The notes under the pieces were generated by a model. It saw only the letters and a program-made list of their open reading frames with translations. It did not search any database and was not told the DNA's origin. From Verrucomicrobiota bacterium (GTDB taxonomy: Bacteria; Verrucomicrobiota; Verrucomicrobiia; Chthoniobacterales; JAFAMB01), in NCBI GenBank assembly GCA_019246215.1, contig JAFAQT010000001.1, positions 5,225-69,224 of the forward strand: a stretch of DNA of 64,000 bases, in the 5' to 3' direction. The position numbers were made by a program, and so were the translations under genes. Of the stretch, positions 615 through 20,602 are shown one piece after another. The first letter of the stretch is position 1. Each line of letters opens with the position of its first letter.

Positions 615-1298
615 ATGGATGGACGAATAGCCGAGTCTAGCCTAGGCACGAAAGAAGCGATCACCGAGAAGCGCTTAACCGGGGTTCCCGCTTTCAAAGA
701 ATGGGCCATCATCTGTGCGTCGATCGAACGCGGTGGGACAAGCTTGATTTTTCGAAAGGGCGGAATTGCTGAAGGTGCAAAGGGGTTCCAATTCAAACAT
801 CGGCGATTCTTTCTATTCCCGACATATTTTCATGAACAAGTCAAGCGGACGCGCCTTAGTGGGGAATACGACATAACACCGCGGAATGACTGCGTGGCGG
901 TTTCCCTCTTCGCGGAGGTTGAGTTTGCCATTTTCTTGCGAGACTTGCGCCTAATTCAGGGTTTGAGCTCGCTTCACGTCTTGCAATCGACCGTCCTGGA
1001 GGAGCGCTTTCATTACGATAAACCAGAAGGTCTGTACGTGGCCTTCCTGCGCGCATTTCATATCTTTCCAGTTTGGGAGTTGCCGTGCCATGCTTCCTAT
1101 GGCGGATGCCGCTCCTGGGTTACTCTGCCTGGCCCGCCCGCTGATCTAAAAAAAGAACCTGTGCTCACAGACGAAGAACAAAACCGTCGACGTTCCTTGT
1201 GCCTCGCTATTTCGGAGACTCCACACTCGAATCCGGTCACATATACAGTAACTGAATTCGCTGGAACGTCGCAGCCACCCGATCCCGAACGCGATTGA
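615..1298 (+). CDS. DUF1802-like conserved hypothetical protein
   Basis: 227-aa ORF. The segment PAFKEWAIICASIERGGTSLIFRKGGIAE...FFLFPTYFHE resembles the DUF1802 family as I recall it. The 3' end overlaps the convergent gene by about 60 nt, so the true end is uncertain. Confidence 0.5.
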   Translation: MDGRIAESSLGTKEAITEKRLTGVPAFKEWAIICASIERGGTSLIFRKGGIAEGAKGFQFKHRRFFLFPTYFHEQVKRTRLSGEYDITPRNDCVAVSLFAEVEFAIFLRDLRLIQGLSSLHVLQSTVLEERFHYDKPEGLYVAFLRAFHIFPVWELPCHASYGGCRSWVTLPGPPADLKKEPVLTDEEQNRRRSLCLAISETPHSNPVTYTVTEFAGTSQPPDPERD

Positions 1299-1713
1299 TT
1301 TCGCGAGAATCTGAATGGCGGCTTAGAGAGCTGATCAGATGATCGAAAATAGGTCGTGCATCTACGAGCTTTGATTTCAGAGACTCCATATAATCCGCCA
1401 TTGTCTTCTTTGAGTCGGGATCTTCGCCCATGGATTTCACAATTTGGGAGTCTGCGAATCGTTCCTTATTCGCATTGAATTCGTCGACAAACTTGTTGGC
1501 CTGGTCACAAAATTTGTCCGCCGCCTTTATTAAGTCCGATTCTGTTGTTACGGCATCGAGTGCCGATCCGAGATCGTTGATCGCAGACAGGTAGACAGCA
1601 AAAGGCTGCTTGTATCGATCGATGATGGCTTGTTTCTCCGGATCCAGCCCGAAGGCCGCAAGATTTAGGACGAAAAGAGCCGACCCCAGAAAGACCGCAA
1701 ACTTCCAATTCAT
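1237..1713 (-). CDS. hypothetical secreted or membrane-anchored helical protein
   Basis: ORF 1237..1767. I prefer the internal start MNWKFAVFLGSALFVLNLAAFG (a signal/anchor-like segment) at 1713. No recognisable family. Confidence 0.4.
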   Translation of the reverse strand: MNWKFAVFLGSALFVLNLAAFGLDPEKQAIIDRYKQPFAVYLSAINDLGSALDAVTTESDLIKAADKFCDQANKFVDEFNANKERFADSQIVKSMGEDPDSKKTMADYMESLKSKLVDARPIFDHLISSLSRHSDSREINRVRDRVAATFQRIQLLYM

Positions 1714-1841
1714 AAAGATGTCATACCGGGATTGCGGGACATTGTTTGAGGGTTGCCCGGGAATCAATCAAAAATTTGGATCTGTCCTTCTGGGCAGATG
1801 TGTTGTGCGCGTGCGTTTCGCGTGAGCGTGTGAAGCGCCGA

Positions 1842-2603
1842 TTAATGGGTGGCTTTCGCGATCAAGTAATTACTCACAACCGACCGGCCTTCCGAGAAGA
1901 TCGTCTGCCCATCGGTCCTAGCGTAGAATGTTGTAGAGGATCCACCATCGAAATTTAATGCGCGGCTGATGTGATGGTCCGGAACCATCGTCGCCTGCCT
2001 CAGAATATCGCCCATCTCCTTCAAAGTAACCGATCGGCAGATACCGAAACCCCATTCTGAGCGATCGCACGAAAAAATAAAGGTGCGTGCCGCGACGCGT
2101 CTGTTGTCGAGCCCGGCCACGGTTTGTCCGGCTTCCACTAGAAATGGCCCGCATTGGATGGCTTCATGAATTCCTTTTGTTCCTGGAAATTGTTCGGTTC
2201 GCGCCAGCAAGGGAAGATGATTTCTCACATAAAATATCCCGGACAAGAGCTTCGCTTTTTGCAGACGGTGAACCACATGATCGTTGCTGATCAGCAGCCC
2301 AATCGCCTCGAAATTCTCGTCAAAATACCCGCCATTGATCCCCGCTAGTCCTCCACCAGCTTCAATAGCGTCTCTCAACGCTCGAGTCCTTCCCTCAGTG
2401 TTCGCGATTACCTCGAGCCTTACGTCAGCTGCGGCAAAATAAACCAGTTTAATTTCAGCTTCAGCGACGCCGTTACTTACACGAAACTCTGAGGCTGCCA
2501 GCTTTCCGTCCAGTACAGGTTGATCGCGTCGGTCAAGCACTATCCAATCGGCGTATAAGCATAATGGGCTGAGAAGAAAGAGCAGAAGAAGCTTTTTCAC
2601 CAT
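1842..2603 (-). CDS. phosphodiester glycosidase family protein (DUF2233/NAGPA-like), secreted
   Basis: 253 aa with signal peptide MVKKLLLLFLLSPLCLYA. GINGGYF and LNFDGGSSTTF motifs are typical of this family. Confidence 0.6.
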   Translation of the reverse strand: MVKKLLLLFLLSPLCLYADWIVLDRRDQPVLDGKLAASEFRVSNGVAEAEIKLVYFAAADVRLEVIANTEGRTRALRDAIEAGGGLAGINGGYFDENFEAIGLLISNDHVVHRLQKAKLLSGIFYVRNHLPLLARTEQFPGTKGIHEAIQCGPFLVEAGQTVAGLDNRRVAARTFIFSCDRSEWGFGICRSVTLKEMGDILRQATMVPDHHISRALNFDGGSSTTFYARTDGQTIFSEGRSVVSNYLIAKATH

Positions 2604-2648
2604 GAAAACCTGGCGTTCTTAACTATGTACGGTGCAACGAATGGCAGG

Positions 2649-3578
2649 TCATTTTACTCCGGTCGCCAAAAGTGTTTGAAAATACGGGCTATTCAGTTCT
2701 CTCGAAACAATCTGTACGTCGTTTTCTCGAAAGCCGGCCTGTTCCAGCAGATGCACAAGTTCGACCTCGGTGAATCCGAGCCAAAGATCCGCGTATAATT
2801 CTCTTGCCTGCTCGAAGCCATGGGCGAGCAGATCCAGGATCACAAGGCGCCCACCCCCACGCAGGATTCTTCTGGCTGCCGCGATTGCCCTTTGCGGGCT
2901 GTTGGCGTGGTGGAGTGCCTGACTGAATATTGCCAGATCAATTGAATCATCCGATATGGGTGGGTCTTCAAGGTCACCGAGACGGTACTCCAAGTTGGTG
3001 ATCCCTTGATCCTTGGCAAGTTGGGACCCGATTTCGACCATGCGCTCGGAAATATCGAGGGCGATCACATTCCGAGCGCTTTTAGAGAGAATTTGGGAGA
3101 GTGTTCCTTCGCCTGCGCCCAAGTCTGCGACATCAATGGACGGGATCATGGTCAGGAAAAGATGTGCCAGAGCTTGCCAGGATCTTCCAGGGCAGTAACT
3201 GCGTCCAAACTTTCCGGCGAGCCTGTTGAAATACTCGCGGGTGCGGTTCTTTCGCTTGGCGATCACATGCTGAAGGCTGGAGCGATCCAAAGCGGCTTGC
3301 GGCATATCCGCGACGGCCAACCGGATGAGATTTCGCAGTTCAGGTTCCTTAATTGGACCGCTCAGGGACCAGCTGTAATAGATATTTTTCCCGGCCCGCC
3401 GATCCTGGACCAGGCGGCTTCGTTTCAGGTGGGCGAGGTGAGTCGAAATGCGTGATTGGCCCATCCCGAGAATCTCCTGGATCTCTGCTACTGACAATTC
3501 TTCGCTCTGAAGAATATGCATCAAACGGACCCGAGTTGGATCGGATAATGTACGTAGAGAATTCAGCATTGACGTCAT
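2649..3578 (-). CDS. sahR: ArsR-family HTH fused to a SAM/SAH-binding methyltransferase fold; SahR-like regulator of the SAM cycle
   Basis: The N-terminus LSDPTRVRLMHILQSEELSVAEIQEILGMGQSRISTHLAHLKRSRLV is an ArsR winged helix. The C-terminus has a class I methyltransferase motif (VADLGAGEGTLS ... VIALDIS). The gene is divergent from metK-ahcY. Confidence 0.65.
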   Translation of the reverse strand: MTSMLNSLRTLSDPTRVRLMHILQSEELSVAEIQEILGMGQSRISTHLAHLKRSRLVQDRRAGKNIYYSWSLSGPIKEPELRNLIRLAVADMPQAALDRSSLQHVIAKRKNRTREYFNRLAGKFGRSYCPGRSWQALAHLFLTMIPSIDVADLGAGEGTLSQILSKSARNVIALDISERMVEIGSQLAKDQGITNLEYRLGDLEDPPISDDSIDLAIFSQALHHANSPQRAIAAARRILRGGGRLVILDLLAHGFEQARELYADLWLGFTEVELVHLLEQAGFRENDVQIVSRELNSPYFQTLLATGVK

Positions 3579-3685
3579 GGAAATACGGTCGATATATCAG
3601 CGTATCATGATTGGTCAATATCCGCACCTGCCTTCCCAGCTCTCGGTCCACGCTGGATTCTAAACTCACTGTCCTCTCCTCATTT

Positions 3686-4864
3686 ATGGCACGCCGTAAC
3701 ATATTTTCCTCTGAATCTGTGGCCGAAGGGCATCCAGATAAAGTCTGCGATACCATTTCAGATCAAATCTTAGATGCTTGTTTAACTCAGGACTCAAAGA
3801 GCCGCGTAGCCTGCGAAACTCTCGTCAAAGGTAATCTGGTTGTGATCGCGGGTGAAATTACCACCAACGCCCGTTTCGATTATCTCGACGAGGTCCGTTC
3901 GGCTATACGTGAAATCGGTTATGTCTATGAGGATTCCCAGTTTCATGCTGATACCTGCGTAATTGTCCAGGCCCTGAGCCGTCAATCGCGCGACATCGCT
4001 CAAGGCGTCGACGCCAAAGCCGCCGAAGGGAAAGAAACGGACGAACAGGGAGCCGGTGATCAAGGGTTGATGTTTGGCTTTGCGGTTCGCGAGACGCCGG
4101 AATTGATGCCAGCGCCCATCCAATTGAGCCATAGACTTGGCCGGGAGTTGACCCGCCTCCGCAAATCCGGCGAACTGCCTTGGCTTCGTCCCGATGCCAA
4201 GACGCAGGTTTCAATCGAGTACGAAGGGTATCGCCCTATCCGAGTCGATACGGTTGTGATCTCCACGCAGCATGCCGCGGACGTAAAACACAGAGAAATT
4301 CGCGAGACATTGATCGAACGAGTGATCAAAGGAGTGATCCCATTGGATTGGATCGATTCTTCTACCCGATATCTCATTAATCCGACAGGCCGGTTTGTGA
4401 TTGGGGGACCGGAAGGCGACTCCGGACTGACCGGGCGCAAAATTATTGTTGATACCTATGGCGGAATGGGTCGTCACGGTGGCGGCGCGTTTTCAGGTAA
4501 GGATCCATCCAAAGTAGACCGTTCCGCCGCTTACATGGGAAGGTATGTCGCGAAAAACGTGGTCGCCGCTGGACTCGCGGACCGTTGCGAAGTGCAATTC
4601 GCCTATGCAATCGGGTATCCGGATCCGGTCAGCATTTCAGTCAATACGTTTGAGACCTCGACAGTGGACGAAGAAAAAATCGAACAAGCCATCCGGGAAG
4701 TTTTCAATTTCAAACCGGCTGCGATCATCCAGCAGCTTGAACTGCTCCGTCCTATTTATAAGAAGACAACCAATTATGGGCACTTTGGCCGCGAAGACGA
4801 TCTGGAAGCTCTCCGCTGGGAACGGACGGACAAGGCCGATGCACTGAAGCAATTCGTCCCCTGA
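3686..4864 (+). CDS. metK: S-adenosylmethionine synthase
   Basis: [22 protein letters not shown] start, plus [10 protein letters not shown] and [16 protein letters not shown] motifs. The ORF-track start at 3611 is an upstream in-frame extension, so I chose the ATG at 3686. Confidence 0.95.
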
Positions 4865-4916
4865 AACCCCACCCATTGACAGTTCCATTCACCTTACCAT
4901 CTCCGATTCAATTTAC

Positions 4917-6236
4917 ATGAGCACTGTGACCATAACCCGATCCGCAGATTACAAAGTCGCTGACCTCGGACTAGCCGAGTTCGGCAGAAAAGAAATTGAA
5001 ATAGCCGAAACGGAGATGCCTGGATTGATGGCGCTGCGTGCGGAGTTTGGGACCGCGAGACCGCTCGCTGGCGCTCGAATAGCAGGCTGCCTGCATATGA
5101 CAATTCAAACGGCGGTATTGATCGAAACGCTGATTGAATTGGGAGCATCGATTCGCTGGTCGAGCTGTAACATCTTCTCGACCCAGGATCATGCTGCTGC
5201 CGCACTTGCTGCGCAGGGCATTCCGGTATTCGCATGGAAGGGCGAGACACTCGAAGAATACGATTGGTGTATTGAACAGACGGTTTTCTGGCCCGATGGT
5301 CAGCCACTTAATATGATCCTGGACGACGGTGGCGATCTGACCGCGATCGTCCACCAAAAATATCCGCATTTGTTAAAGGGGATCCGCGGGCTTTCCGAAG
5401 AGACAACGACTGGTGTTCACCGCCTCTACCAGATGATGGAACGCGGCGAACTTGGCTGCCCCGCCTTTAATGTCAACGATTCTTGCACAAAATCGAAGTT
5501 CGACAACCTGTACGGCTGTCGTGAATCGCTGTTGGACGGCTTGAAGCGGGCGACGGACGTGATGATTGCCGGCAAAGTCGCTGTTGTTTGCGGGTATGGC
5601 GACGTCGGAAAAGGATGCGCGCAATCGCTGAAAGGACAAGGGGCTCGGGTCATCGTGACCGAGATCGATCCAATCTGCGCTCTTCAGGCAGCAATGGAAG
5701 GATATCAGGTCGCGACCCTTGAAGAGGTCGTTCAGGAAGGGGATATCTTCATCACGGCCACTGGATGCCGGGATATCATCCGGCGTGAACATCTCGACGC
5801 GATGAAGAACCAGGCGATCGTGGCGAATATCGGGCACTTCGATCTCGAAATTGACGTTGCGAGCGTGTTCAATGACAAGAACTTAAAACGCATTAAAATA
5901 AAGCCGCAGGTTGACCAGGCGGAGTGGCCGAATGGGAAACGTGTGACCATCCTCGCCGAAGGTCGCCTGATGAACTTGGGTTGCGCTACCGGGCATCCCT
6001 CTTTCGTTATGAGCGCCTCCTTCACCAACCAAGTCATGGCGCAAGTCGAGTTATTTACCCATCAGGGGATCTACGAAAATAAGGTCTATGTATTACCTAA
6101 GAAGCTTGACGAGAAGGTCGCCCGTCTGCACCTCGCCAAACTAGGAGTAAACTTAACTCAATTAACCGATACGCAGGCGAGTTACCTTGGCATTCCCGTT
6201 GAGGGGCCGTATAAACCGGATTTTTATCGATACTAA
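4917..6236 (+). CDS. ahcY: adenosylhomocysteinase
   Basis: 439 aa with [27 protein letters not shown], the NAD site [10 protein letters not shown], and the C-terminal PDFYRY. Confidence 0.95.
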
Positions 6237-6324
6237 TAGATTGAAATGTATTTCGTAGTGAGTCTGGTGCCCACCTGATCGATGCGTGCGAGCGGTTTTC
6301 AAGGGCAGTTCGTCTCTATGCATC

Positions 6325-7719
6325 ATGGAAGATCTCCCCACTCAAATTCGGGCGAAGATGGAAGCGGCGGGACTCAGCTCCGCCGCGGTCGGTGCGTTCC
6401 TGTATCAATATCGTAAGCTCGCCCGGAATGAGGCTGGCTTAATACCGGAGAATTCAATTTCTCCGGTCGGAAACTTGCCTTTCATCGATGACGAATCGGT
6501 CTGGGGCGAGCAGTCGAACCTGGCGACTCAAACGGTTTTGTTAAAGCTAAACGGCGGTCTTGGCACCGGGATGGGTTTGGAAAAAGCCAAGAGCCTGCTG
6601 AGGGTTCGGGATGAATTTACCTTCCTTGATATCATCGCCCGGCAATGTTTGCATCTGCGGTCGGCGGTCGCTCCGCAACTCAGACTGTTGTTTATGAACA
6701 GCTTCAGCACAAGCAGCGATACCGCTGCGGCGCTGGCGAGCTATCCCGGGCTAGGCGATCCCAAACAACTGGAGTTGATGCAGAACAAAGTACCAAAGAT
6801 CGATGTGAAAACACTCGAGCCTGCCGAATGGCCACAGAATCGATCTCTGGAATGGTGCCCGCCGGGGCACGGCGATCTTTATACGGCTCTTTTGGGCTCC
6901 GGTTTGCTCGAACGATTGTTAAATGAAGGCAAAAAATATTTGTTCGTCTCAAATTCCGACAATCTTGGTGCCACCCTGGATCTCCGGTTGTTAGATTTCT
7001 TTGCTAGCTCCGCTGCGCCGTTTCTGATGGAGGTCACTTCTCGTACCGCTGCCGATCGGAAGGGAGGCCATTTGGCCCGTAAAAATGCCGATCAACGTCT
7101 TTTGCTCCGCGAATTTGCGCAATGTCCCGAGAAGGATGTGGCTTCCTTTCAGAACATTGCGCGGCACCGCTATTTCAATACCAACAATCTCTGGATTCGT
7201 TTGGATGCCTTGCACGCCGTCCTGGAATGTAGCGACGGTTTACTGCCCCTACCGCTGATTCGAAACGAGAAGACGATAGATCCGCGAGATAAATCGACGC
7301 CTAAAGTCTATCAGCTCGAGACCGCAATGGGGGCCGCAATCGAATGTTTTGATGACGCAAGAGCGATCGAGGTGCAGCGTAGTCGTTTTGCGCCGGTTAA
7401 GACGACGGCCGATTTGTTGGCTGTCCGCTCCGACGCTTATGAATTGGATTCTGAATTCAAGCTGGTGCTGCGGCCCGAACGGAACGGGGTGCCGCCCGTG
7501 GTGAAATTAAGCGATCACTACAAGTTAGTTGATGAATTTGAACCGCTTATTGCCCGTGGTGTGCCGTCGCTGGCGCGTTGCCACAGCCTCACGGTCGAGG
7601 GCAAGATGGTATTTGAGCCGGGCGTGGAAATAGTAGGGGAGGTCAAATTCGTCGCACCAGGTGAAGATACGAAAACTGTCGCTGCGGGCACTTATCAGAA
7701 CAGGGAGGTGGCTTTGTAA
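6325..7719 (+). CDS. UTP--glucose-1-phosphate uridylyltransferase, eukaryote-type UDPGP family
   Basis: LKLNGGLGTGMGLEKAKSLL, FMNSFSTS..T and NSDNLGA motifs match the UDPGP (UGP2-like) family rather than GalU. I prefer the ATG at 6325 over the GTG at 6286. Confidence 0.75.
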   Translation: MEDLPTQIRAKMEAAGLSSAAVGAFLYQYRKLARNEAGLIPENSISPVGNLPFIDDESVWGEQSNLATQTVLLKLNGGLGTGMGLEKAKSLLRVRDEFTFLDIIARQCLHLRSAVAPQLRLLFMNSFSTSSDTAAALASYPGLGDPKQLELMQNKVPKIDVKTLEPAEWPQNRSLEWCPPGHGDLYTALLGSGLLERLLNEGKKYLFVSNSDNLGATLDLRLLDFFASSAAPFLMEVTSRTAADRKGGHLARKNADQRLLLREFAQCPEKDVASFQNIARHRYFNTNNLWIRLDALHAVLECSDGLLPLPLIRNEKTIDPRDKSTPKVYQLETAMGAAIECFDDARAIEVQRSRFAPVKTTADLLAVRSDAYELDSEFKLVLRPERNGVPPVVKLSDHYKLVDEFEPLIARGVPSLARCHSLTVEGKMVFEPGVEIVGEVKFVAPGEDTKTVAAGTYQNREVAL

Positions 7720-7732
7720 GATTAGTGCGATC

Positions 7733-8548
7733 TTAGAGTCTAACAAAATCCCACAAAAATCGGAACCATAGGTAAAACATTCCGCGCCACGTGTAGCGAA
7801 CTTGTTCCTTATCGACATGTGCCAAGAGCCCGGCGCGCACGTTGTGAGTGATCTGCGCGGTCAAGTCTTGCTGCAACAGTATCTGAATCTGCAGGGGATC
7901 AAGTTTGGGGATTGCGTCTACTGATATGTTGTGGCGCGACAGCAAATGCTGATGCGCCTCGCACAGGCCGACGAACGAAGCAGTGGATCGAACGCGTTGA
8001 ATGTGAGTATGGGGCAGGAATTTTAACGAGTACGAAAACGGATAGTTCCAGGTTGTAAAAACCTGTCCGTCCAATAGACGCGTCACGAGACTTATGTAAT
8101 AAAAGGCGATGTTGCCCTCATCAATCAGGCAAAGAGCGGCTTGGGTTTGATCGCTTGGTCGGTGAAATAACCTCAAAAATTGGCGTTGCGTATCCCAGTC
8201 GCAACCGAGGTCATTGACGAGCTCGAAGCCTTGCTGCTCGATTTCTTCAGTCAGAGAATCGAGATTCGGAAATAGATCTCGACCGGGCGGATTTTTGTGG
8301 GCAAGCTCACGGTCGAGAGGCATTCGTAAGGTCCGGATTTTGGTCAGAATCTCAAGCCAGGGCAAGAAGATCCAGAGGGCTGCTGCTGCAAGACCTACGA
8401 CCCAGTTCCCGGATGGCAAATATCCAAGCAAAAACGAAACCGCAAACAAGCAGAGTACGCAGAGTCTTTGGGCAATCGGGTGATCGAAAGACCGAAATGC
8501 AATGCCCAGGACAGCCACCCCTAATACTAATAGAATAGACGAAAGCAT
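7733..8548 (-). CDS. hypothetical integral membrane protein
   Basis: 271-aa ORF with about three N-terminal hydrophobic helices. It is the last gene of the parB-led minus-strand gene string. No family recognised. Confidence 0.5.
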   Translation of the reverse strand: MLSSILLVLGVAVLGIAFRSFDHPIAQRLCVLCLFAVSFLLGYLPSGNWVVGLAAAALWIFLPWLEILTKIRTLRMPLDRELAHKNPPGRDLFPNLDSLTEEIEQQGFELVNDLGCDWDTQRQFLRLFHRPSDQTQAALCLIDEGNIAFYYISLVTRLLDGQVFTTWNYPFSYSLKFLPHTHIQRVRSTASFVGLCEAHQHLLSRHNISVDAIPKLDPLQIQILLQQDLTAQITHNVRAGLLAHVDKEQVRYTWRGMFYLWFRFLWDFVRL

Positions 8549-8565
8549 CGTAAATACAGGGTCTG

Positions 8566-8820
8566 TTAAGGCAGGATCTTATGTTCACTTAAAAATTCTT
8601 CAAGCTCATCAGGTCCGAAGTCGGGAAGAACCAACTCTCCAAAGAGCAGCGTAGGCGTGGAAGTCTGGCCCGAAACGCGTCTCAGTTCCTTTAACGAATC
8701 AGGATCCCGACGCACATCCACGCGTTGATATTGATAGCCGCCCTTTTCGAGATAATCTTCGGCCATGCGACACCATGGACACCCGGTCTTAACGTAAAGG
8801 ATCATTGACGTTGAGCTCAT
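8566..8820 (-). CDS. glutaredoxin-family small thiol oxidoreductase
   Basis: LYVKTGCPWC active site and TPTLLF motif. The start overlaps the upstream stop (ATGA). Confidence 0.75.
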   Translation of the reverse strand: MSSTSMILYVKTGCPWCRMAEDYLEKGGYQYQRVDVRRDPDSLKELRRVSGQTSTPTLLFGELVLPDFGPDELEEFLSEHKILP

Positions 8821-12080: not shown

Positions 12081-12733
12081 AGTTCAAAAACCTGCGTTTG
12101 ATCCAGGAGACAAACCCGAGGTCAGCGGCCGAGAACATGGCTCTCGACGAAACGTTGTTTTTGACCGCGGCATGCTCCGTGTTTAGGTCCTACCGGTGGC
12201 TCCGCCCCTCTGTCTCCTTCGGCTATTTTACCGCCTGGAAAGAGGTCGCTCTACCGTATGCTGGACGAGATCTGGTGCGGCGCTGGACCGGTGGAGGCAT
12301 CGTGCAGCACGGTCAGGATTTTACCTATTCGCTGATTTGTCCCGATAGCGAGAATCCCCCGCGCACGATCGAGTTTTACCGATTTGTCCACCTAGCGATT
12401 GCTAATATTCTGCGCAGGAGCGGGTACCCTGTGGAAATTGCACAATCTACCGAGTCAATCCGGTCTTCGGCCTGTTTCGAAAGATCAGTTCAGTTTGACT
12501 TGAGACTGCGAGGGGAGAAAATTGCCGGAGCTGCGATTCGCCGGAACAGCAAAGGTTTGCTGCTCCAAGGGAGTATTCAGTGTCTTAAGGTTCCGGCACA
12601 GTTTGACGAATTGCTGGCGGCTGCGCTTGCGAGGCAAGTTGACTCGTTTGTCGTCACCAACGTGATAATGGAACAGGCGGCGCGCATGGCGAAAGAAAAG
12701 TACGGTGCTGCAGAATGGAATTGTCGACGTTAG
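12077..12733 (+). CDS. biotin/lipoate A/B protein ligase family protein (LplA/LipM-like catalytic domain only)
   Basis: NMALDETLF, the RRWTGGGIVQHG motif, and LRGEKIAGAAIRR (catalytic Lys context). The start overlaps the MFS stop (ATGA). Confidence 0.65.
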   Translation: MKFKNLRLIQETNPRSAAENMALDETLFLTAACSVFRSYRWLRPSVSFGYFTAWKEVALPYAGRDLVRRWTGGGIVQHGQDFTYSLICPDSENPPRTIEFYRFVHLAIANILRRSGYPVEIAQSTESIRSSACFERSVQFDLRLRGEKIAGAAIRRNSKGLLLQGSIQCLKVPAQFDELLAAALARQVDSFVVTNVIMEQAARMAKEKYGAAEWNCRR

Positions 12734-12744
12734 GATCACCCGTC

Positions 12745-13851
12745 ATGAACGAAGCGTTTCTTTCCAATCGCCTCTTCGAGGGGCTGACGCCGGAGGTGCT
12801 CCGTTCGGTCGAGATCCAGGAGATGGAATATCAACCGGGGGAGCTGATATTCGATGAAGGGACCTCAGGATCCACACTGATGCTCGTGGGGCGGGGTCGG
12901 GTGCAAATTTCTAAAACAGGACGCCAGGGGTTGCAGGAAACCCTAGCGACGATCGAGAAGAACGACTTCTTTGGAGAGTTGGCGGTCATCGACCACGGAC
13001 CGCGGTCTGCGCGAGCGATTGCCTTGGAGCCGACAGTGCTTGGCGAAGTTGACCACAAGACGTTCACTCGGCTGATGAACAGGGCTCCGGACACACTGCC
13101 ATTGACCTTTACACGGGTAGTGGTCCAACGGTTGCGCTATACGAACGCACGGTATATTGAGCAACTTTTACAGAACGAGCGCCTCACACTTCTTGGCAGT
13201 ATGGTCGGTTCGATCGTGCACGATCTTAAGAACCCTATTTCCGCGATCTTGTCTTCTGTTGATTACCTCGAAAAAACGGCACCATCGGATTCTGTGCGGC
13301 AGTTGGCAGAGATTATTCAGTCTTCCGCCCTCGGAATTATCGAGATGAGCGAAGAGTTGCTCGGATTTGCGCGAGGGAAGGTGAACCTAAGACCACGCGT
13401 GACGTCGGTGCGCCGGCTGATGGAGCTCCTGGAGAAGGAGATATTAAACCAGATTCGTAATACGCAGGTGCGGCTTATGCTCCAGGTCATCGACGCCGAT
13501 GACCTCATTTTGGACGAAGCGCGCTTCACGCGCTGTCTCGCCAATATCGTCAAGAATGCAAAAGAAGCTCTGGGGGACCAAGGAACGATTACGATCCGGT
13601 TTCGCGAAGCGGGATCTGAGTTGCGGGTGTCGATTTCGGATAACGGTCCTGGGGTTCCGGAATCGATCCGGAGCAGAATTTTCGAGCCGTTTGTGAGTTA
13701 TGGCAAGAAATATGGAACCGGCCTCGGCATGGCGATCGCGAAATCGACGGTAGATGCCCACGGAGGCCGTATTTGGCTCGAAAGCGAAATGGGAAAAGGC
13801 ACTACCTTCCATGTGGTGCTCCCGAAGCATTTCGATCCGCATCTGCGCTGA
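12745..13851 (+). CDS. cytoplasmic sensor histidine kinase with an N-terminal cyclic-nucleotide-binding domain
   Basis: CNB signature FGELAVIDHGPRSARAIA, H-box HDLKNPISAI, N-box NIVKNAKEA, and G-boxes DNGPGVP / GTGLGMAIAK. No TM segments and no adjacent response regulator. Confidence 0.8.
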   Translation: MNEAFLSNRLFEGLTPEVLRSVEIQEMEYQPGELIFDEGTSGSTLMLVGRGRVQISKTGRQGLQETLATIEKNDFFGELAVIDHGPRSARAIALEPTVLGEVDHKTFTRLMNRAPDTLPLTFTRVVVQRLRYTNARYIEQLLQNERLTLLGSMVGSIVHDLKNPISAILSSVDYLEKTAPSDSVRQLAEIIQSSALGIIEMSEELLGFARGKVNLRPRVTSVRRLMELLEKEILNQIRNTQVRLMLQVIDADDLILDEARFTRCLANIVKNAKEALGDQGTITIRFREAGSELRVSISDNGPGVPESIRSRIFEPFVSYGKKYGTGLGMAIAKSTVDAHGGRIWLESEMGKGTTFHVVLPKHFDPHLR

Positions 13852-14213: not shown

Positions 14214-14217
14214 AGGG

Positions 14218-15471
14218 TTAGATTGTCTTGATTGCATGCTCAAAAAGAGTTTCAAATTCTCTAAGGTTCGGACGAATCAGTTTGGCTTGACCGATTTTGT
14301 CAATCACAGCCTCCTGCGTCTTTAGACCGTGTCCGGTAATACACAGGACGATGCTTTCATTTCGAGGGATGCAGCCGCGTTCGATCAGTTTTTGAGCACA
14401 CGCCACGGTGACTCCGCCTGCAGTCTCAGCAAAAATTCCTTCGGTTTCGGCCAGGAGTTTGATTGCGTCTATGATCTCCTCATCTGTGCAATCTTCCGCT
14501 GCGCCGCCAGTTTCTTTCATTGTTCGGATGGCGTAATAACCGTCTGCCGGAGTGCCGATCGACAACGATTTTGCGATCGTGTGAGGTTTGGCAACCGGCT
14601 TAACGATCTCTGTGTTATTTTTGATTGCGGTGGTGACCGGTGAACACCCGACTGCTTGAGCGCCGTAAATGCTAAACTCGCCGGCCTCGACGAGCCCAAG
14701 CTTAGTGAATTCTTGAAATGATTTGTGGATCTTTGTCAACAGAGAGCCGCTGGCCATACAAACTACTGTGTGCCTGGGCAGACGCCATCCGAGTTGTTCG
14801 ATGATCTCGAACCCCATGGTTTTCGAGCCCTCGGCGTAATAAGGCCGAAGGTTTACATTCACGAAGCCCCAGTGATATTTGCCGGCGATTTCGGAACAAA
14901 GGCGGTTAACCTGATCGTAGGCCCCTTGGATGCCAATAACGTTAGTACCGAAAATCAGTGAGCCAAGAATCTTTGTCGGCTCCAGATCCGCCGGTATCAG
15001 CACAAAACTACGAAGCCCCGCGGCGGCGGCATTTGCAGCCACCGAATTCGCCAGGTTGCCGGTGGAGGCGCAGGCAACGGTGTCGATTCGGAGTTCCCTC
15101 GCCCGGCTCAGAGCGACCGAGACGACGCGATCCTTAAATGAAAGCGTAGGGTAATTAACGGTGTCGTTTTTGACGTAAAGCTCTTCGACACCGAGGCGCT
15201 CCGCTAAGCGGCGAGTGCGGATCAAGGGAGTGAATCCGGTGTGGAGACCCACAGTCGGCTCATTTTCAAGCGGGAGGAGTTCCCGATATCGCCACATTGA
15301 TCGTGGGCGTGAAAGGATCTTTTTGCGAGTTAAAGACTTGCCGATCGCGTCGTAGTCGTAGGCGGCTTCCAGGGGGCCGAAATCGAATTCGCAGACGTGA
15401 ACAGGCTCCTTGGCGTAGTGTCGGCCACACTCCCGACATCGAAGATGCGAAAAGAACCGCGGTTTATCCAT
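14218..15471 (-). CDS. threonine-synthase-family PLP enzyme (ThrC homologue with N-terminal Cys-rich ribbon)
   Basis: PTLSFKDR PLP-lysine motif, a CASTGN segment and a GxxxGxS region. The N-terminus carries CRECG...VCEF. 417 aa. It lies directly downstream of a SAM-I riboswitch. Confidence 0.8.
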   Translation of the reverse strand: MDKPRFFSHLRCRECGRHYAKEPVHVCEFDFGPLEAAYDYDAIGKSLTRKKILSRPRSMWRYRELLPLENEPTVGLHTGFTPLIRTRRLAERLGVEELYVKNDTVNYPTLSFKDRVVSVALSRARELRIDTVACASTGNLANSVAANAAAAGLRSFVLIPADLEPTKILGSLIFGTNVIGIQGAYDQVNRLCSEIAGKYHWGFVNVNLRPYYAEGSKTMGFEIIEQLGWRLPRHTVVCMASGSLLTKIHKSFQEFTKLGLVEAGEFSIYGAQAVGCSPVTTAIKNNTEIVKPVAKPHTIAKSLSIGTPADGYYAIRTMKETGGAAEDCTDEEIIDAIKLLAETEGIFAETAGGVTVACAQKLIERGCIPRNESIVLCITGHGLKTQEAVIDKIGQAKLIRPNLREFETLFEHAIKTI

Positions 15472-15827: not shown

Positions 15828-16748
15828 ATGCCCGCAAAGTTTCGCGTTAATTCTCCCGGAGGAGAACCTTTCGAACGAGAAGTTAACAATACCGCCACGA
15901 TCGGGCGGACTCCGGACAATACCATTCCACTATCGGGCAACCATGTTTCCCGCCAGCACGCGATAGTGCGTTGTCACAATGGCTTCCAGTATCAGATCAT
16001 GGATCTTGGCAGCCGGAACGGAACGTTCGTCAATGATCAGCGGGTGGTGATGCCGGTCACCCTCGAACCAGGTGCCAGAGTCAGAATCGCGAATTACGAG
16101 CTCGTGTTCGATCAATCTCCCGACGACGAACCCTCTGGGAACGTCGATGCAACGCTTGCGGCAGGGAGTATGGAAGGGCACCAGGCCGTATTGTCCGTCG
16201 CAATACTTGTCTGTGACATCCGCGGTTTCAGTTCGATGGCCGAAAAACTGGGTGAGCGTGAACTCGCCCAAATCATCGGTAATTGGTTTCGCGACATCGG
16301 GAATGCTGTGCAATCTGCCGGTGGGATTATCGACAAATATATTGGTGACGCCTTGCTGGCTTACTGGCCGGCACGAGATGAGGAGGGAACCGAATGCGCA
16401 GTCTGCTTGGACGTGGCGCTGACCATTCTCCAACTTGCGGCCAATCGAGTTTGGCCGGGAACCGAGACTCCGTTTCGCGTCGGGATTGCAGTTCATTTCG
16501 GCCGCGTGACAAGCAGCAATATTGGCCAGGTCGCAATGAGAGATGCCACGATCATTGGCGACACAGTGAACACGGCTTTCCGGCTCGAGGGTGTCATGAA
16601 GGAATTAGACCAGAACCTGGTCCTCTCGCAGGATGTCGTTACAGTCTTGCCCGCCAGATACGATTTGGTGAAATTTGGAGAGTTCCAGCTGAAAGGCAAA
16701 AGCCAGGCAGTCCGTGTTTACGGGCTGCGGGATCTACGGGGGAATTAG
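15828..16748 (+). CDS. FHA domain fused to a class III adenylate/guanylate cyclase domain
   Basis: N-terminal FHA: TIGRTPDNTIPLSGNHVSRQHAIV...DLGSRNGTFVND. C-terminal cyclase: VLVCDIRGFSSMAEKLG, DKYIGDALLAYW, IGDTVNTAFRLE. Confidence 0.85.
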   Translation: MPAKFRVNSPGGEPFEREVNNTATIGRTPDNTIPLSGNHVSRQHAIVRCHNGFQYQIMDLGSRNGTFVNDQRVVMPVTLEPGARVRIANYELVFDQSPDDEPSGNVDATLAAGSMEGHQAVLSVAILVCDIRGFSSMAEKLGERELAQIIGNWFRDIGNAVQSAGGIIDKYIGDALLAYWPARDEEGTECAVCLDVALTILQLAANRVWPGTETPFRVGIAVHFGRVTSSNIGQVAMRDATIIGDTVNTAFRLEGVMKELDQNLVLSQDVVTVLPARYDLVKFGEFQLKGKSQAVRVYGLRDLRGN

Positions 16749-16924
16749 CTTCTTTCCAACCGCGAGCTGAATCCTTGATTGTCGCTGGCTGGGTCGCTCA
16801 CAAATCATGGAAATGAGCCGTACCCAGGTTCACCGCCCTTTTTAATTTAACCCGATCTTCTCCCGAGCCGCTTTCCAAACACTTCTACAACCCGAAAGTC
16901 TCACAAGTTTTGGTTGTAATCGGA

Positions 16925-19186
16925 TTAGCCACGCTCTCTTTTGCCCAGGAACCAGTAGGAGCAGACAAATCCGCCGATCATCCACAATAAAAGTGATGCG
17001 CAGGCGACCCAAATCGGTCGAGTCTCAGTGTAGAGGGTTCCTGTTTTGAGTCGTTCTCCGGTTCTTGATTTGGTCCAGTCGCTGATGTTGAAATAAGCGA
17101 TAGGATAGTCCCGGGCGAGTGCTCCGGAAATTTTCTGGTTAATCAAAAAACTAACATCCGCGATGCGTTGAGAGGCAAAGCTAGGCATAACCTGGCTTAA
17201 GGTCAGGACAGGTAATGTCATGTCCTTGGCCGGTACTGTGAAACCTGAAAAGAGGATTTGCGGGATGAGCAGCAGCGGAACCAGCATGACCGCCTGCATT
17301 GGAGACCTGGCGTAAGCGGACGTCGTCAAACCGATCCCCGTTGCGGCGAAGGCCAGGAGAATGAGCCCGATGATCTGCCATAGAAAGGCCCCATGAACAC
17401 TGAACCTGCCGACCGCGATCGTCCCGTAGAGCAGGAGAGATTGGAATGCAGTGAGACCGGCCATCCAGATAAACTTGCTGGTCAAATAGCTCCAGCGGCT
17501 TAGCCCGACCAGCCGCTCACGGCGATAGATCGGCAGCTCTTTGATAATTTCCTGTGCCGAGTTGCTGCACCCGAACCAGAGTGTCGCAATATAGGCAAAA
17601 AACTGATCTAACTGCGGATCGGGTGCTGCCCAGGCCACCAAAGCTCCGATAATAATCGGTTGGGCCACCAGAATAATCAAGTTCTTGGAGTCAGCTCTGA
17701 AAATCGCAAGCTGCCGTTGCAAAAGTATCGGGAGCGAGAACGCCCTCCTTTTCTTTGTCAGTGGCGCAGGCGCATCCTGGTCCGGCTCCCCTGGAACCGT
17801 CGGTTCGAAGGGAGGGAGGATTGCTGATTCCATGGACTGAAGCGCGTCGTACAGCAAGGAGAGGCGGGTAACACCGAATCTTGAACGTGCCTGGTCGGGA
17901 GGACCCTGAAATACGACGCGCCCATCAGAAACAATGGCGATCTGGTCCATCAGGTAGACATTTTCCATCACGTGCGTAGTGCAGATCACAGTGCAGCCCG
18001 TATCAGCCAGGCGGCGTAATAGCTCCATCAGTTTGAATTCCGCCAGAGGATCCAGTCCCGAGGTCGGCTCATCCAGAAACAAAAGAGGCGGACGACTCAA
18101 TAGTTCGACTCCCACACTGACCCGCTTCCGCTGCCCACCGGACAAGCGACCGATCTTCAGGTTTACCCGGTCGGCCAATCCGAGACTGACGATGGTGTGA
18201 TCGACCAGTTTCACAATCTCCTGCCGAGGTGTTCCTGCAGGTAATCGCAGACGAGCAGCAAAGGTGAGCGCTTCGGTGACCGTCAGGTCAGAGTGAACTA
18301 TATCGTCTTGGGGGACGTAACCGAATAACGAGCGAAGCTGGCCGAGGTTTTTGTACAGATCGGTCTGATCGAACCGAACCTTTCCGCTTTCAGCAGGTCG
18401 AAGACCGCTCAAAGCGTCCAGAAGCGTGGTTTTCCCGGCGCCGCTTGGTCCAAGTATCCCGATGAACTGACCAGGTTCCGCCACAAAACCTGCACGGTTC
18501 AAGATCGGACCGTTGTCACCTTGGCGAGTAAGCCCGATAGCTAAAATGCGGCCCACGGAAAGGCGCCGGACGCGAACGAGCCGCCTGCCATCGTAAATAA
18601 AGAAAAATGGTCCCAATTGAATCTGGTCGCCGATCACGAGATCGTGTTCGTCGAAACGGCGACCGTTGACGAAGGATCCTGATTTGCTATGAAGATCGAG
18701 TAATCGATATCCTTTCGGCCCGGATTCGATCATTGCATGGCGTCTCGAGACGACAGGATCGCTTAAGACAACATCGACCTCCTCGCTTCGCCCGAAAATG
18801 AGGTCCGACCCGAGAGGGATGTCTGCTGTCGGTGTTCCTTTATACAAAACAGTACCGATGGGATTGACCAACTCCGCTGCACCTGAAGATTCGTCGGTGC
18901 CGACGCCAAAGGCCAAAGTGACTGGACCGACCTGGATCTGATCCCCTGACTTGAGCGCGGTCCGACCCGAGATACGGTTCCCGTTCACCGCGGTTCCGCG
19001 TTGACTGCCGAGGTCCTCAATAAACCACGCTTCACGTTCGAATAGAATCCGGCAGTGACGCCGCGATACTTCCGGATGCCCCAGAATCAGATCGACTTCC
19101 GCAGCCCGGCCAAGGACCACACTTTCACCGCGCAGCAACTCCGAGCGCGGCGGGAGCCCGGCAAGAATGGAGATCGGCATTTCCAA
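16925..19186 (-). CDS. ABC transporter with two N-terminal FHA domains, one NBD and an ABC-2/ABCG-type permease in a single polypeptide
   Basis: FHA1: VVLGRAAEVDLILGHPEVSRRHCRI...GSQRGTAVNG. FHA2: LIFGRSEEVDVVLSDPVVSRRHAMI...HSKSGSFVNG. Walker A GPSGAGKTT, signature LSGGQRKRV, Walker B LLFLDEPTSGLD, and six C-terminal TM helices. Confidence 0.85.
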   Translation of the reverse strand: MEMPISILAGLPPRSELLRGESVVLGRAAEVDLILGHPEVSRRHCRILFEREAWFIEDLGSQRGTAVNGNRISGRTALKSGDQIQVGPVTLAFGVGTDESSGAAELVNPIGTVLYKGTPTADIPLGSDLIFGRSEEVDVVLSDPVVSRRHAMIESGPKGYRLLDLHSKSGSFVNGRRFDEHDLVIGDQIQLGPFFFIYDGRRLVRVRRLSVGRILAIGLTRQGDNGPILNRAGFVAEPGQFIGILGPSGAGKTTLLDALSGLRPAESGKVRFDQTDLYKNLGQLRSLFGYVPQDDIVHSDLTVTEALTFAARLRLPAGTPRQEIVKLVDHTIVSLGLADRVNLKIGRLSGGQRKRVSVGVELLSRPPLLFLDEPTSGLDPLAEFKLMELLRRLADTGCTVICTTHVMENVYLMDQIAIVSDGRVVFQGPPDQARSRFGVTRLSLLYDALQSMESAILPPFEPTVPGEPDQDAPAPLTKKRRAFSLPILLQRQLAIFRADSKNLIILVAQPIIIGALVAWAAPDPQLDQFFAYIATLWFGCSNSAQEIIKELPIYRRERLVGLSRWSYLTSKFIWMAGLTAFQSLLLYGTIAVGRFSVHGAFLWQIIGLILLAFAATGIGLTTSAYARSPMQAVMLVPLLLIPQILFSGFTVPAKDMTLPVLTLSQVMPSFASQRIADVSFLINQKISGALARDYPIAYFNISDWTKSRTGERLKTGTLYTETRPIWVACASLLLWMIGGFVCSYWFLGKRERG

Positions 19187-19531: not shown

Positions 19532-19693
19532 TTACGCATCGAGGGCAATGGGTTTCTTTTCCGGCCACAGGGGCACTGTCGAGAGTTTTGAGTTTGGAGT
19601 TGTGTGCTTTGAGTTTTGGGTTTTCCCTGTAGCCAGTTTGGTGAGCGGTTTTCAGCCACTAAACCATGTAAAACACAAAATTTTAATCGAGGA

Positions 19694-20401
19694 ATGATAA
19701 GGTTCTTATTGGTGGTCTCGATTTTTTGCGCGCTAGGCGCCACCGTGCTGGGTTTTTTCAACCGGGCTAAGCTTACGCGACTCAGCGAGGACTTGAGCGA
19801 ATCGCGTTCAGCCGGGGCTCAAGCAGGAACCCAATTAAATGAATTGCAGCAAAAGCTGAAACAAACAGAGGATCGCCTTTCTACTCAGGAGCGCCTGACC
19901 CAGCAGGAGCGGGATTCGCGCTCCGCGGAATTGAACGCCACCAAAGCGAAGCTGAACCAAGCGACGGAACAACTCACTGCACGTGATAGCGAAAATAAAG
20001 CGCTGACTGCCGCCTTAACTGAGGCGGGCCGTAACCTGGAACAAAAGCAGCGCGCGGAACAGGACCGCCAAGCGCTCGCGAGGCGACTGATTGACGTCGA
20101 GGATGCCTTAAATCAATTCCGCCTCGCCGCAAACAAAGCAAAGGGAAAATATACGATTCCTCTGGAAGGGAGCATTCTTTCGATTAACCAGGAGGCCAAA
20201 GCTCTGACCGTGAGCTTGGGAAGTGATTCTGGAGTGGCAGCCAATTCCAGATTAACGGTCGTGAGAAATGGGGAGAAGTTGACGCAGTTGCGCGTTGTCT
20301 CGGTCGAGCCGAACAGTTGTACCGCTGAATTTGCTTCCTCTGCGCCTGAGAACCTTTCAAAAGTTGCGATTGGAGACTCAGTATTACTCGCCACGAAATG
20401 A
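19694..20401 (+). CDS. membrane-anchored coiled-coil protein, hypothetical
   Basis: I prefer the start MIRFLLVVSIFCALGATVLGFF (TM anchor). A long Q/E/L-rich heptad-like region follows, then a C-terminal beta-rich domain. Confidence 0.5.
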   Translation: MIRFLLVVSIFCALGATVLGFFNRAKLTRLSEDLSESRSAGAQAGTQLNELQQKLKQTEDRLSTQERLTQQERDSRSAELNATKAKLNQATEQLTARDSENKALTAALTEAGRNLEQKQRAEQDRQALARRLIDVEDALNQFRLAANKAKGKYTIPLEGSILSINQEAKALTVSLGSDSGVAANSRLTVVRNGEKLTQLRVVSVEPNSCTAEFASSAPENLSKVAIGDSVLLATK

Positions 20402-20592
20402 AGAAAGTGATTTTTATCCTGAACTTAGGCTTGTTCTTAATGGGATGCGCTTCCGACGACTCCAAGGACAAGGAAGTGAATCAAACGCCGCAATTTGGGA
20501 AGCCGGAAAGCTCAATTCCCTGGAACCAGCCCTCGGATTGGGAGAAGAATGGCCAACTCGGCTCAATGCCCGGGTTGGAACAGCCCCATTAG
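20398..20592 (+). CDS. small lipoprotein, hypothetical
   Basis: MKKVIFILNLGLFLMGCASDD has a lipobox (LMGC). The start overlaps the upstream stop (ATGA). Confidence 0.5.
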   Translation: MKKVIFILNLGLFLMGCASDDSKDKEVNQTPQFGKPESSIPWNQPSDWEKNGQLGSMPGLEQPH

Positions 20593-20602
20593 CCTTTCCA
20601 GT

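Follow-up and report, generated by a model that had tools for sequence, protein, structure and literature searches.

Two convergent genes for FHA proteins

At positions 15828 to 19186 of the stretch of Chthoniobacterales DNA analyzed here, the window (64 kb in full), a soluble protein that joins an FHA domain to a class III adenylate cyclase domain is encoded tail to tail with an ABC transporter bearing two FHA domains of its own. The original prediction, made from the sequence alone, had placed the two genes here, convergent and 176 bp apart, with the first encoding an FHA-cyclase fusion, and all of this is confirmed by the open reading frames (ORFs) and by Pfam matches above the curated cut-offs. 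In the ORF listing of the window, the cyclase gene occupies 15828..16748 (+) and encodes 306 aa from an ATG start, and the transporter gene occupies 16925..19186 (-) and encodes 753 aa counted from a TTG. That length had been given to a protein with the order FHA, FHA, nucleotide-binding domain (NBD), ABC2 permease; the architecture holds, with a minor correction to the start, which gene callers and an identical NCBI protein put at an ATG at 19180, two codons downstream, giving 751 aa. No intrinsic-terminator-like site or other element was found in the 176-bp gap. The features of the pair are as follows.

15828..16748, plus strand: soluble 306-aa protein, FHA plus predicted class III (IIIb-type) adenylate cyclase (ORF, Pfam and PDB matches)
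15828..16112, plus strand: cyclase FHA domain, aa 1-95, with G26-R27, S41-R42-x-H44 and S62-R63-N64-G65-T66
16113..16184, plus strand: cyclase linker, aa 96-119, of variable sequence and predicted to be disordered; T109 (codon 16152-16154) and A111 are invariant
16185..16727, plus strand: class III catalytic domain, aa 120-300, with D130, D174, K170, T241, N248 and R252
16749..16924, no strand: convergent intergenic gap, stop to stop, 176 bp
16925..19186, minus strand: FHA-FHA-NBD-ABC2 half-transporter (Pfam; identical 751-aa NCBI protein)
18902..19135, minus strand: transporter FHA1, aa 18-95, with G-R and S-R-R-H but with Arg in place of the loop Asn (S-Q-R-G-T)
18587..18835, minus strand: transporter FHA2, aa 118-200, with G-R and S-R-R-H but with Ser, Ala or Gly in place of the loop Asn
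16952..18499, minus strand: NBD followed by an ABC-2 type membrane domain, aa 230-745 (Pfam; hydrophobic windows at 503, 600, 633 and 725)

The FHA-adenylate cyclase

Pfam places the FHA domain at residues 24-87 (E=1.7e-19; PF00498, 70.4 bits) and the Guanylate_cyc domain at residues 120-294 (E=8.9e-15), where PF00211 scores 55.2 bits against a curated cut-off of 21.9, and no transmembrane-like segment is present in the 306-aa protein. The search for homologs gave 1443, and among the best 120 listed the full-length ones carry both domains. The closest solved catalytic domains in a PDB search are those of OaPAC and bPAC, class IIIb photoactivated adenylyl cyclases (PACs), at E=2e-22. Among 81 Chthoniobacterales relatives, the metal-binding aspartates D130 and D174 and the transition-state residues N248 and R252 are kept in 79-81, and K170 (in DKYIGD) and T241 (in TIIGD) in 80, the segments around the latter two aligning with TKFIGD and TILGD of OaPAC. 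When the window protein is aligned with 122 distant representatives of 25-55% identity, the six catalytic residues are kept in 111-120 of the 123 sequences. The Lys/Thr pair is the signature of class IIIb adenylate cyclases, shared with the bicarbonate- and CO2-responsive cyclases; guanylate cyclases have Glu/Cys in place of the adenylate-type Lys with Thr (class IIIb) or Asp. These residues indicate an adenylate-specific cyclase of class IIIb, and the ATP specificity that had been read from the lysine of DKYIGD is supported by the presence of K170, by its pairing with a threonine and by the alignment with OaPAC. Since a single chain carries all the catalytic residues, both active sites of a homodimer would be complete.

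The cyclase FHA domain is predicted to be a fully canonical reader of phosphothreonine (pThr). G26-R27, S41-R42-x-H44 and S62-R63-N64-G65-T66 are each found in 81 of 81 Chthoniobacterales homologs, and the FHA Arg, Ser, His and Asn are kept in 121-123 of the 123 sequences of the distant alignment (at least 98%). The solved FHA domains that match it are those of GarA, OdhI and EmbR (E=1e-10 to 1e-7 for GarA/OdhI), and there are partial NCBIfam matches to OdhI/FhaB.

Between the two domains lies a linker in which one threonine stands out. From an alignment of 52 sequences, AlphaFold gives a model of only moderate quality (mean pLDDT 73) in which strands within 3-95 form the FHA sandwich, residues 120-300 take the cyclase fold, and residues 100-119 have a pLDDT below 50. 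T109 and A111 are nevertheless conserved in 81 of 81 Chthoniobacterales homologs, where adjoining linker positions are conserved at 27-64%. Column-wise MAFFT alignment of the distant representatives made the conservation of T109 look negative, because the length of the linker varies, and threonines were instead counted without gaps from the metal Asp in 119 distant family sequences. Counted in this way, threonine is enriched at fixed offsets before the aspartate (62 of 119 at -15, 32 at -17 and 24 at -21, the last being the T109 register) over a background of 4-13 per offset. A threonine just upstream of the cyclase core thus appears to be a family-wide feature, and T109 may be a phospho-acceptor or an FHA-ligand motif. 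A separate observation concerns a kinase encoded at 7776-9887 (-) of a locus that we numbered L083, whose activation segment is DFGLAKSIKHEENDDLATLSMGGFVGTAHFASPE. Its LATLS resembles the DATLA around T109 (window 16143-16163), as would fit a substrate that mimics an autophosphorylation site, the match being too short to count as evidence.

The FHA-ABC transporter

In the transporter, Pfam finds two FHA stretches (E=7.5e-39 combined; PF00498, 132.4 bits) followed by ABC_tran at residues 230-376 (E=1e-26) and ABC2_membrane at residues 487-666 (E=6.8e-20). The NBD motifs are intact: Walker A (246 GPSGAGKT), signature (348 LSGGQ) and Walker B (368 LLFLDE). The protein had been called ABCG-type, which is a fair description of its NBD-first layout but not a demonstrated membership, since the PDB matches of the NBD (ABCA3, ABCA4 and ABCG1) are led by ABCA with PDR/ABCG next, and the best NCBIfam match, TIGR00955 (White/ABCG-type), scores 201.7 bits, far below its cut-off of 736.

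How well do these two FHA domains qualify as phosphothreonine readers? G-R and S-R-R-H are conserved in all homologs that have the domain in question (28 for FHA1, 38 for FHA2), and the FHA2 loop, S-K-S-G-S in the window protein, is S-[KR]-[SAG]-G-S over the homologs. At the aligned loop position GarA and FHA-2 of Mycobacterium tuberculosis Rv1747 have an asparagine (RSINGT in the latter). Conservation of the binding Arg, Ser, His and Asn had been proposed as a check on the FHA domains, and the result is divided: the cyclase domain has all four, invariant over its 81 relatives, whereas FHA1 and FHA2 of the transporter have three of the four, the loop Asn being gone. Pfam additionally scores the transporter FHA domains against Yop-YscD_cpl. 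In Terrimicrobiaceae-type transporters, which are about 641 aa long, FHA1 is missing and the single FHA domain is the equivalent of FHA2, the domain retained in all transporter homologs. The direct search for transporter homologs returned only relatives of at least 78% identity and is uninformative on distant distribution.

Two related loci contain incomplete versions of this gene. In the relative with 69% identity, L001/L031, the transporter gene (11226-12740) is broken up: its pieces comprise an ABC2_membrane fragment of 94 aa, an ORF of 200 aa and additional tblastn matches (3 high-scoring segment pairs), and it is either a decaying pseudogene or the product of long-read frameshift errors. 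In the genome with locus L089, which belongs to the same clade as the window, a 226-aa FHA plus ABC_tran fragment (7853-8533, +) is a truncated FHA-ABC copy, 1.5 kb upstream of a short soluble Ser/Thr kinase.

Gene order in related genomes

Relatives of the cyclase turned up in 503 genomes in a pattern scan limited to one genome per species, and the best 80 loci, all from different assemblies and all from Chthoniobacterales/Verrucomicrobiota metagenome-assembled genomes (MAGs), were analyzed by tblastn with the window neighbors and the kinase, and by a neighbor-joining tree of the cyclases. They fall into a window clade of 30 loci with cyclases at least 69% identical to that of the window, and distant lineages comprising 50 loci with cyclases 53-62% identical.

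Window clade, downstream: convergent FHA-ABC gene in 25/25 loci with enough flank, stop-to-stop median 91 nt
Window clade, upstream: kinase only in L013, about 6 kb off and of another kinase family
Distant lineages, downstream: convergent FHA-ABC gene in 13/41 informative loci
Distant lineages, upstream: divergent kinase gene in 34/49 loci, median gap 102 nt, range 86-239

Five of the distant loci have neither kinase nor ABC gene, two of these five being short-flanked. Loss of synteny in related genomes had been set beforehand as the finding that would speak against the pair, and that objection fails because the two genes stay together in every informative locus of the window clade and in nearly a third of the informative distant loci, beyond close relatives. 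The 13 distant loci with the transporter belong to at least three separate clades (Terrimicrobiaceae-type, L044/45 and L042), in which the pair is likewise convergent and its stop codons lie about 70-90 nt apart in the median. No other window neighbor that was tested is found in these loci; at L057, for example, the upstream genes are by Pfam a riboflavin synthase and a citrate transporter. A match at L072 was discounted as a different ABC-2 protein, being 9.4 kb away and consisting of the membrane domain only.

L044 and L045 are the only loci in which kinase, cyclase and transporter genes are found in one cluster. At L044 the order is kinase 1279..4431 (-), cyclase 4523..5470 (+), PNP_UDP_1 5484..6254 (-) and FHA-FHA-ABC 6262..8706 (-). 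The PNP_UDP_1 gene, nucleoside phosphorylase or AMP-nucleosidase-like, lies between cyclase and transporter at L045 likewise, and the proximity of a purine-nucleotide enzyme to an adenylate cyclase may be meaningful. Because ABC-positive and kinase-positive clades interleave in the cyclase tree, the simplest history is an ancestral kinase-cyclase-ABC cluster from which one or the other adjacency was lost in each lineage, the window lineage keeping the transporter and losing the kinase.

The neighboring kinase

At the 34 loci with a kinase gene, this upstream neighbor of the cyclase encodes, according to Pfam, a Hanks kinase with one transmembrane (TM) helix and C-terminal Sel1 repeats. Its motifs are VALK, HRDIKPAN, DFG and SPE, and the TM helix spans residues 318-336. 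Alignment of the 34 kinases reveals a conserved F-[P/A]-T-x-[V/L/A]-[E/D] just C-terminal to the kinase domain (in fuller form EQDF[P/A]-T-x-[V/L/A]-[E/D]), within a variable juxtamembrane stretch. Juxtamembrane segments are the typical autophosphorylated FHA-docking sites of mycobacterial kinases, and by analogy this motif is a candidate, and only a candidate, for an FHA-docking phospho-site. A long form of the kinase, of about 1050-1160 aa, is found at L044 (1279-4431, -), L045, L050, L053, L055, L065, L067, L071 and L081. Inserted between its kinase domain and TM helix is a further segment with a conserved RYRLLRDCGE..GR.FQALD, which resembles the beginning of another domain, perhaps a pseudokinase; Pfam gave one Pkinase stretch only.

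In the window itself, Pfam detected neither Pkinase nor PP2C in any plausible non-nested ORF of at least 150 aa, and six-frame tblastn with two neighbor-type Hanks kinases gave nothing better than E=0.36. The absence of a Ser/Thr kinase and of a PP2C phosphatase from the 64 kb, as originally reported, is therefore confirmed by the ORF scans, and the tblastn search backs the kinase part. Could the kinase simply have moved a short distance within the window clade? The kinase fragment at L013, about 6 kb upstream of the cyclase, was considered as a displaced ortholog of the Sel1 kinase and ruled out, as it belongs to a short (about 260-330 aa) soluble family whose members sit in kinase-rich variable regions with resolvases. 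Hanks kinases are numerous in window-clade genomes generally, with four Pkinase genes within 20 kb at L088.

A proposed kinase-cyclase-exporter module

Why should two FHA proteins be encoded side by side with no kinase in sight? We put at roughly 60% the probability that the window pair is the retained part of a three-gene Chthoniobacterales module for Ser/Thr phosphorylation, composed of kinase, cyclase and exporter, in which the kinase is no longer adjacent. That the window holds two parts of a three-part module is suggested by the synteny in its relatives, including the L044 and L045 clusters. The full module would comprise a membrane receptor kinase of the Hanks type, with one TM helix and with Sel1 repeats presumably exposed to the periplasm, plus the soluble cyclase with its FHA domain and an ABC-2 exporter that also bears FHA domains. 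In this scheme, whose phosphorylation and binding steps and direction of regulation we infer from the observed gene identities, conservation and synteny, the Sel1-repeat region would activate the kinase, which would phosphorylate its own juxtamembrane threonine motif, T109 of the cyclase, or both. The cyclase FHA domain would then bind pThr, either docking on the kinase or binding the phosphorylated linker of the partner subunit in the manner of DgcB, with its head-to-tail pairing, and Chk2, and either event could alter how the two halves of the obligate cyclase dimer are arranged and thereby set the output of cyclic AMP (cAMP). The exporter FHA domain or domains would respond to the same phospho-signal in trans and adjust transport, much as phosphorylation acts, positively, on Rv1747.

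The original prediction had proposed a shared upstream kinase. A link between kinase and cyclase now has strong comparative support from the 34 distant loci with a divergent kinase gene and from L044 and L045; that a single kinase couples export to cAMP production is more conjectural, and it sits uneasily with the loss of the pairing in most distant lineages and with the convergence of the genes. Several further observations weigh against the module as a whole. The cyclase-ABC pair is absent from 28 of the 41 informative distant loci, kinase and ABC genes occur together at just two loci, a linked Sel1-type kinase was not found in any window-clade locus, and no PP2C gene was found in any annotated neighborhood. 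The cyclase and transporter genes do not form an operon, and because they converge they are on separate transcripts. In the transporter, the loop Asn is absent from both FHA1 and FHA2 in essentially all of the 38 aligned homologs, and the linker between them, 15-30 aa long, has no universally conserved threonine in the homolog alignment. Lastly, the conserved threonine of the cyclase linker could be structural, as a strand-like hydrophobic pattern follows it in distant members.

Alternative explanations

The simplest alternative is that the genes are coincidental neighbors, encoding two independently regulated FHA proteins that answer to different kinases, have no influence on each other and are kept together by phylogenetic inertia. 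Within the window clade this accounts for much: the whole block of ThiS, ThrC, cyclase, ABC, the 261-aa coiled-coil protein and GT9 is conserved, as simple relatedness predicts, the convergent orientation implies separate transcripts, and these genomes are rich in FHA and kinase genes (L088 being a case in point). Absence of the adjacency from more than two-thirds of the informative distant loci agrees with it too. What it accommodates poorly is the persistence of the convergent pair in three or more distant clades stripped of the other tested neighbors, since chance adjacency that recurs in independent contexts, in genomes of several thousand genes, is very unlikely; nor does it explain why L044 and L045 join both genes to a kinase. 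We consider coincidence unlikely, though it deserves to be taken seriously.

A second possibility, which we find rather improbable, is that the cyclase is regulated by a kinase through its FHA domain while the Asn-less FHA domains of the transporter are phospho-independent modules that may bind the cyclase or another partner constitutively. If so, the picture of three pThr readers would be wrong for two of the three domains. The replaced loop Asn in both domains of essentially all homologs, the Yop-YscD_cpl scores, the lack of a conserved threonine between the FHA domains and the fact that the transporter is next to a kinase nowhere except in the L044/45 cluster all point in this direction. 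Against this, both domains have kept, and conserve, the Arg of G-R that contacts the phosphate as well as the S-x-x-H serine and histidine, and among solved structures FHA2 is most like FHA-2 of Rv1747 (E=2.9e-9), which binds pThr. Proteins of the YscD/EssC type carry truly degenerate FHA folds, unlike the Arg-, Ser- and His-retaining domains of the transporter.

More speculative, and in our view improbable, is a physical complex of kinase, cyclase and exporter, in which the kinase would phosphorylate T109, the resulting pThr would be the trans ligand of the Asn-less FHA domains of the exporter, and the cyclase FHA domain would hold the kinase. Were this so, cAMP would be made at the transporter, transport and second messenger would gate each other, and the result would be a kinase-cyclase-transporter signalosome without a described counterpart. 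Least likely is that the protein is mainly a CO2/bicarbonate- or metabolite-responsive class IIIb cyclase whose FHA domain only localizes or scaffolds it and whose proximity to the transporter has no signaling meaning: K170 and T241, the class IIIb PACs as closest solved domains and the reported response of Synechocystis Cya1 to CO2/bicarbonate (PMC10117731) speak for it, but the FHA pThr residues, invariant in 81 relatives and kept in at least 98% with the 122 distant sequences, argue for selection on phosphopeptide binding, and the kinase adjacency is systematic. Such responsiveness and FHA gating could also exist side by side in one enzyme.

Genomic setting of the pair

The gene content of the window is that of a housekeeping region (metK, ahcY, parB, EF-Tu, L1/L10, rpoBC, S2, Ts, mutS, suf and exbBD-tonB). 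An origin of the cyclase/transporter pair by horizontal transfer was rejected in view of these surroundings and of a GC content that is flat at 0.50-0.56 over the window. An identical copy of the 306-aa cyclase is also found on soil MAG contigs, including GCA_019241195.1. The genes that flank the pair are the following.

12715..13851, plus strand: cNMP-binding histidine kinase, 378 aa, Pfam cNMP_binding (N-terminal), HisKA and HATPase_c, 2 kb upstream of the cyclase
13938-14255, minus strand: ThiS/MoaD-like sulfur-carrier gene, overlapping the end of the threonine-synthase-family gene by 38 nt
14218-15471, minus strand: threonine-synthase-family pyridoxal phosphate enzyme (TIGR00260, 275 bits, above cut-off)
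19616-20401, plus strand: 261-aa protein, N-terminal hydrophobic segment and long coiled-coil-like region, no family match
20495-21544, plus strand: GT9 heptosyltransferase, after the transporter
21612-27218, minus strand: 1868-aa protein, two UvrA-interaction domains and multiple ABC ATPase modules, closest relatives (L085/L086) 1866-1869 aa

The cNMP-binding histidine kinase is a possible local reader of cAMP, or a relay from cAMP to a two-component system, weakly linked to the pair. It was rejected as a core member of the module, as it is adjacent in only 10 of 30 window-clade loci (L003-5, L007-11, L016 and L056), all with cyclases at least 89% identical. At L002 a separate 146-aa cNMP-binding protein is encoded about 5 kb from the cyclase/transporter pair. 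The ThiS/threonine-synthase pair is the divergent neighbor of the cyclase across the window clade, in the place that the kinase takes in other lineages, and the 261-aa coiled-coil protein and the GT9 heptosyltransferase follow the transporter across the clade; the block from ThiS to GT9 is kept in most window-clade loci that extend that far. The latter two neighbors hint at a cell-envelope/lipopolysaccharide context for the exporter. The 1868-aa protein is apparently a tandem, double-length UvrA fusion.

The wider FHA-cyclase family

The FHA-cyclases are widespread: searching 1.84 billion cluster representatives (50% identity clusters) with a profile found the family in 923 clusters at E <= 1e-30. 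The best 150 of the 923 matches are mostly proteins of about 300 aa that span both the FHA and cyclase domains, and the few named matches are Verrucomicrobiales and Myxococcales MAGs. The architecture is routinely annotated, as "adenylate cyclase" in JGI. Four neighborhoods were sampled outside the Chthoniobacterales. At two of them, L091 and L092, Pkinase genes lie within 2.5 kb of the FHA-cyclase on the same strand; at the third a Usp gene adjoins the FHA-cyclase and a kinase-cyclase fusion is encoded about 7 kb away; nothing relevant was found near the FHA-cyclase at the fourth.

On the JGI 3300056388 contig with P0511, a universal stress protein (Usp) gene lies directly upstream of a distant FHA-cyclase (genes 1419-2270 and 2434-3348). 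The M. tuberculosis Usp protein Rv2623 binds FHA-I of Rv1747 (PMC5549992), and by analogy a pairing of Usp and FHA proteins may recur. One structure that matches the cyclase FHA domain as well as transporter FHA1 is PDB 3gqs, the FHA domain of a protein from Chlamydia described as "adenylate cyclase-like". Because Chlamydiae and Verrucomicrobia both belong to the Planctomycetes-Verrucomicrobia-Chlamydiae (PVC) superphylum, FHA/cyclase-like fusions may be old in that group.

Significance and comparison with known systems

FHA-cyclases and FHA-ABC proteins are known kinds of gene. We found no description, in the searchable literature, of a conserved linkage between an FHA class III adenylate cyclase and one particular receptor Ser/Thr kinase or an Rv1747-like exporter, nor of an exporter FHA module that is Asn-less and has a short linker. 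Hanks-type Ser/Thr kinases and cAMP are two main signaling currencies of bacteria, and our search turned up no published example of a direct, dedicated connection from kinase pThr to an FHA-fused class III adenylate cyclase. The large FHA-cyclase family is apparently unstudied for FHA control, and the Chthoniobacterales, abundant in soil, have seen almost no signaling experiments. Synteny makes the link between kinase and cAMP testable, since it supplies a candidate kinase family (Pkinase-TM-Sel1), two candidate phospho-motifs (the juxtamembrane F-[P/A]-T of the kinase and Thr109 of the cyclase) and, as a possible second output, an Rv1747-like exporter.

An N-terminal FHA domain belongs to Synechocystis Cya1 and Anabaena CyaD, that of Cya1 being unconfirmed in the searchable literature. 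Cya1 (slr1991), the main source of cAMP in Synechocystis, with a reported response to CO2/bicarbonate (PMC10117731), resembles the window protein as a small soluble class IIIb adenylate cyclase of similar size. FHA-dependent regulation, a partner kinase or a linked FHA transporter is not described for Cya1 in the accessible literature. In switches of the GarA/OdhI type, pThr in a flexible tail is bound by the FHA domain of the same protein, and the window cyclase likewise has a conserved threonine in a predicted disordered segment beside its FHA domain. Unlike these stand-alone regulators of metabolic enzymes, with their N-terminal ETTS, the window FHA domain is fused to its enzyme and the candidate threonine is C-terminal to it.

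The closest mechanistic parallel is Bdellovibrio DgcB, an FHA-GGDEF protein activated by pThr in its own N-terminal tail (PMC6733907). The FHA-pThr interaction was proposed to rearrange the catalytic dimer, and the kinase is not known from the gene itself (PMC6733907). Both proteins are fusions of a consensus FHA domain, on the N-terminal side, with an output domain that is a nucleotide cyclase, and the DgcB FHA structures 6hbz, 6hc0 and 6hc1 are among the PDB matches. The output of the window protein, unlike that of DgcB, is a class III adenylate cyclase and not a GGDEF domain, and a candidate kinase is named by synteny. The window cyclase also has no N-terminal tail, as the FHA domain begins at residue 3, leaving linker T109 as the only candidate self-ligand. 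The original prediction knew of no characterized FHA-gated cyclase, and our search found no report of FHA control of a class III cyclase; its claim of novelty is narrowed by the common and annotated architecture and by the precedent of DgcB.

For the transporter, the comparison is with Rv1747, whose cognate Ser/Thr kinase is PknF and which has the same order of FHA, FHA, NBD and membrane domain. Rv1747 is phosphorylated on Thr-150 and Thr-208, which are bound by its own FHA domains (PMC3138270); these threonines, numbered T152 and T210, have been placed in a non-structured region (PMC8339232). Phosphorylation in the PknF/Rv1747 system is positive for transporter function (PMC3138270). Rv1747 FHA-2 (6cah) is the best solved match of transporter FHA2, with FHA-1 (6ccd) at E=5.6e-6, and the genomic association of a Hanks kinase at L044/45 adds to the likeness. 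The differences are considerable: there is no kinase beside the window transporter, and the L044/45 kinase lies beyond the cyclase and forms no operon with the transporter; the linker of 15-30 aa has no conserved threonine and both FHA domains are without the loop Asn; some transporter relatives have a single FHA domain; and the phylum is different, Rv1747 having been compared through its FHA structures only. Judged from these sequences, the likeness is architectural, and the specific mechanism would not transfer directly, because the linker is short and lacks a conserved threonine. The analogy with Rv1747 drawn in the original prediction is accordingly retained for the layout and given up for the specific phospho-mechanism. 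The window transporter provides a non-mycobacterial comparison for Rv1747, with a shorter FHA module, no linker threonines and an altered binding loop.

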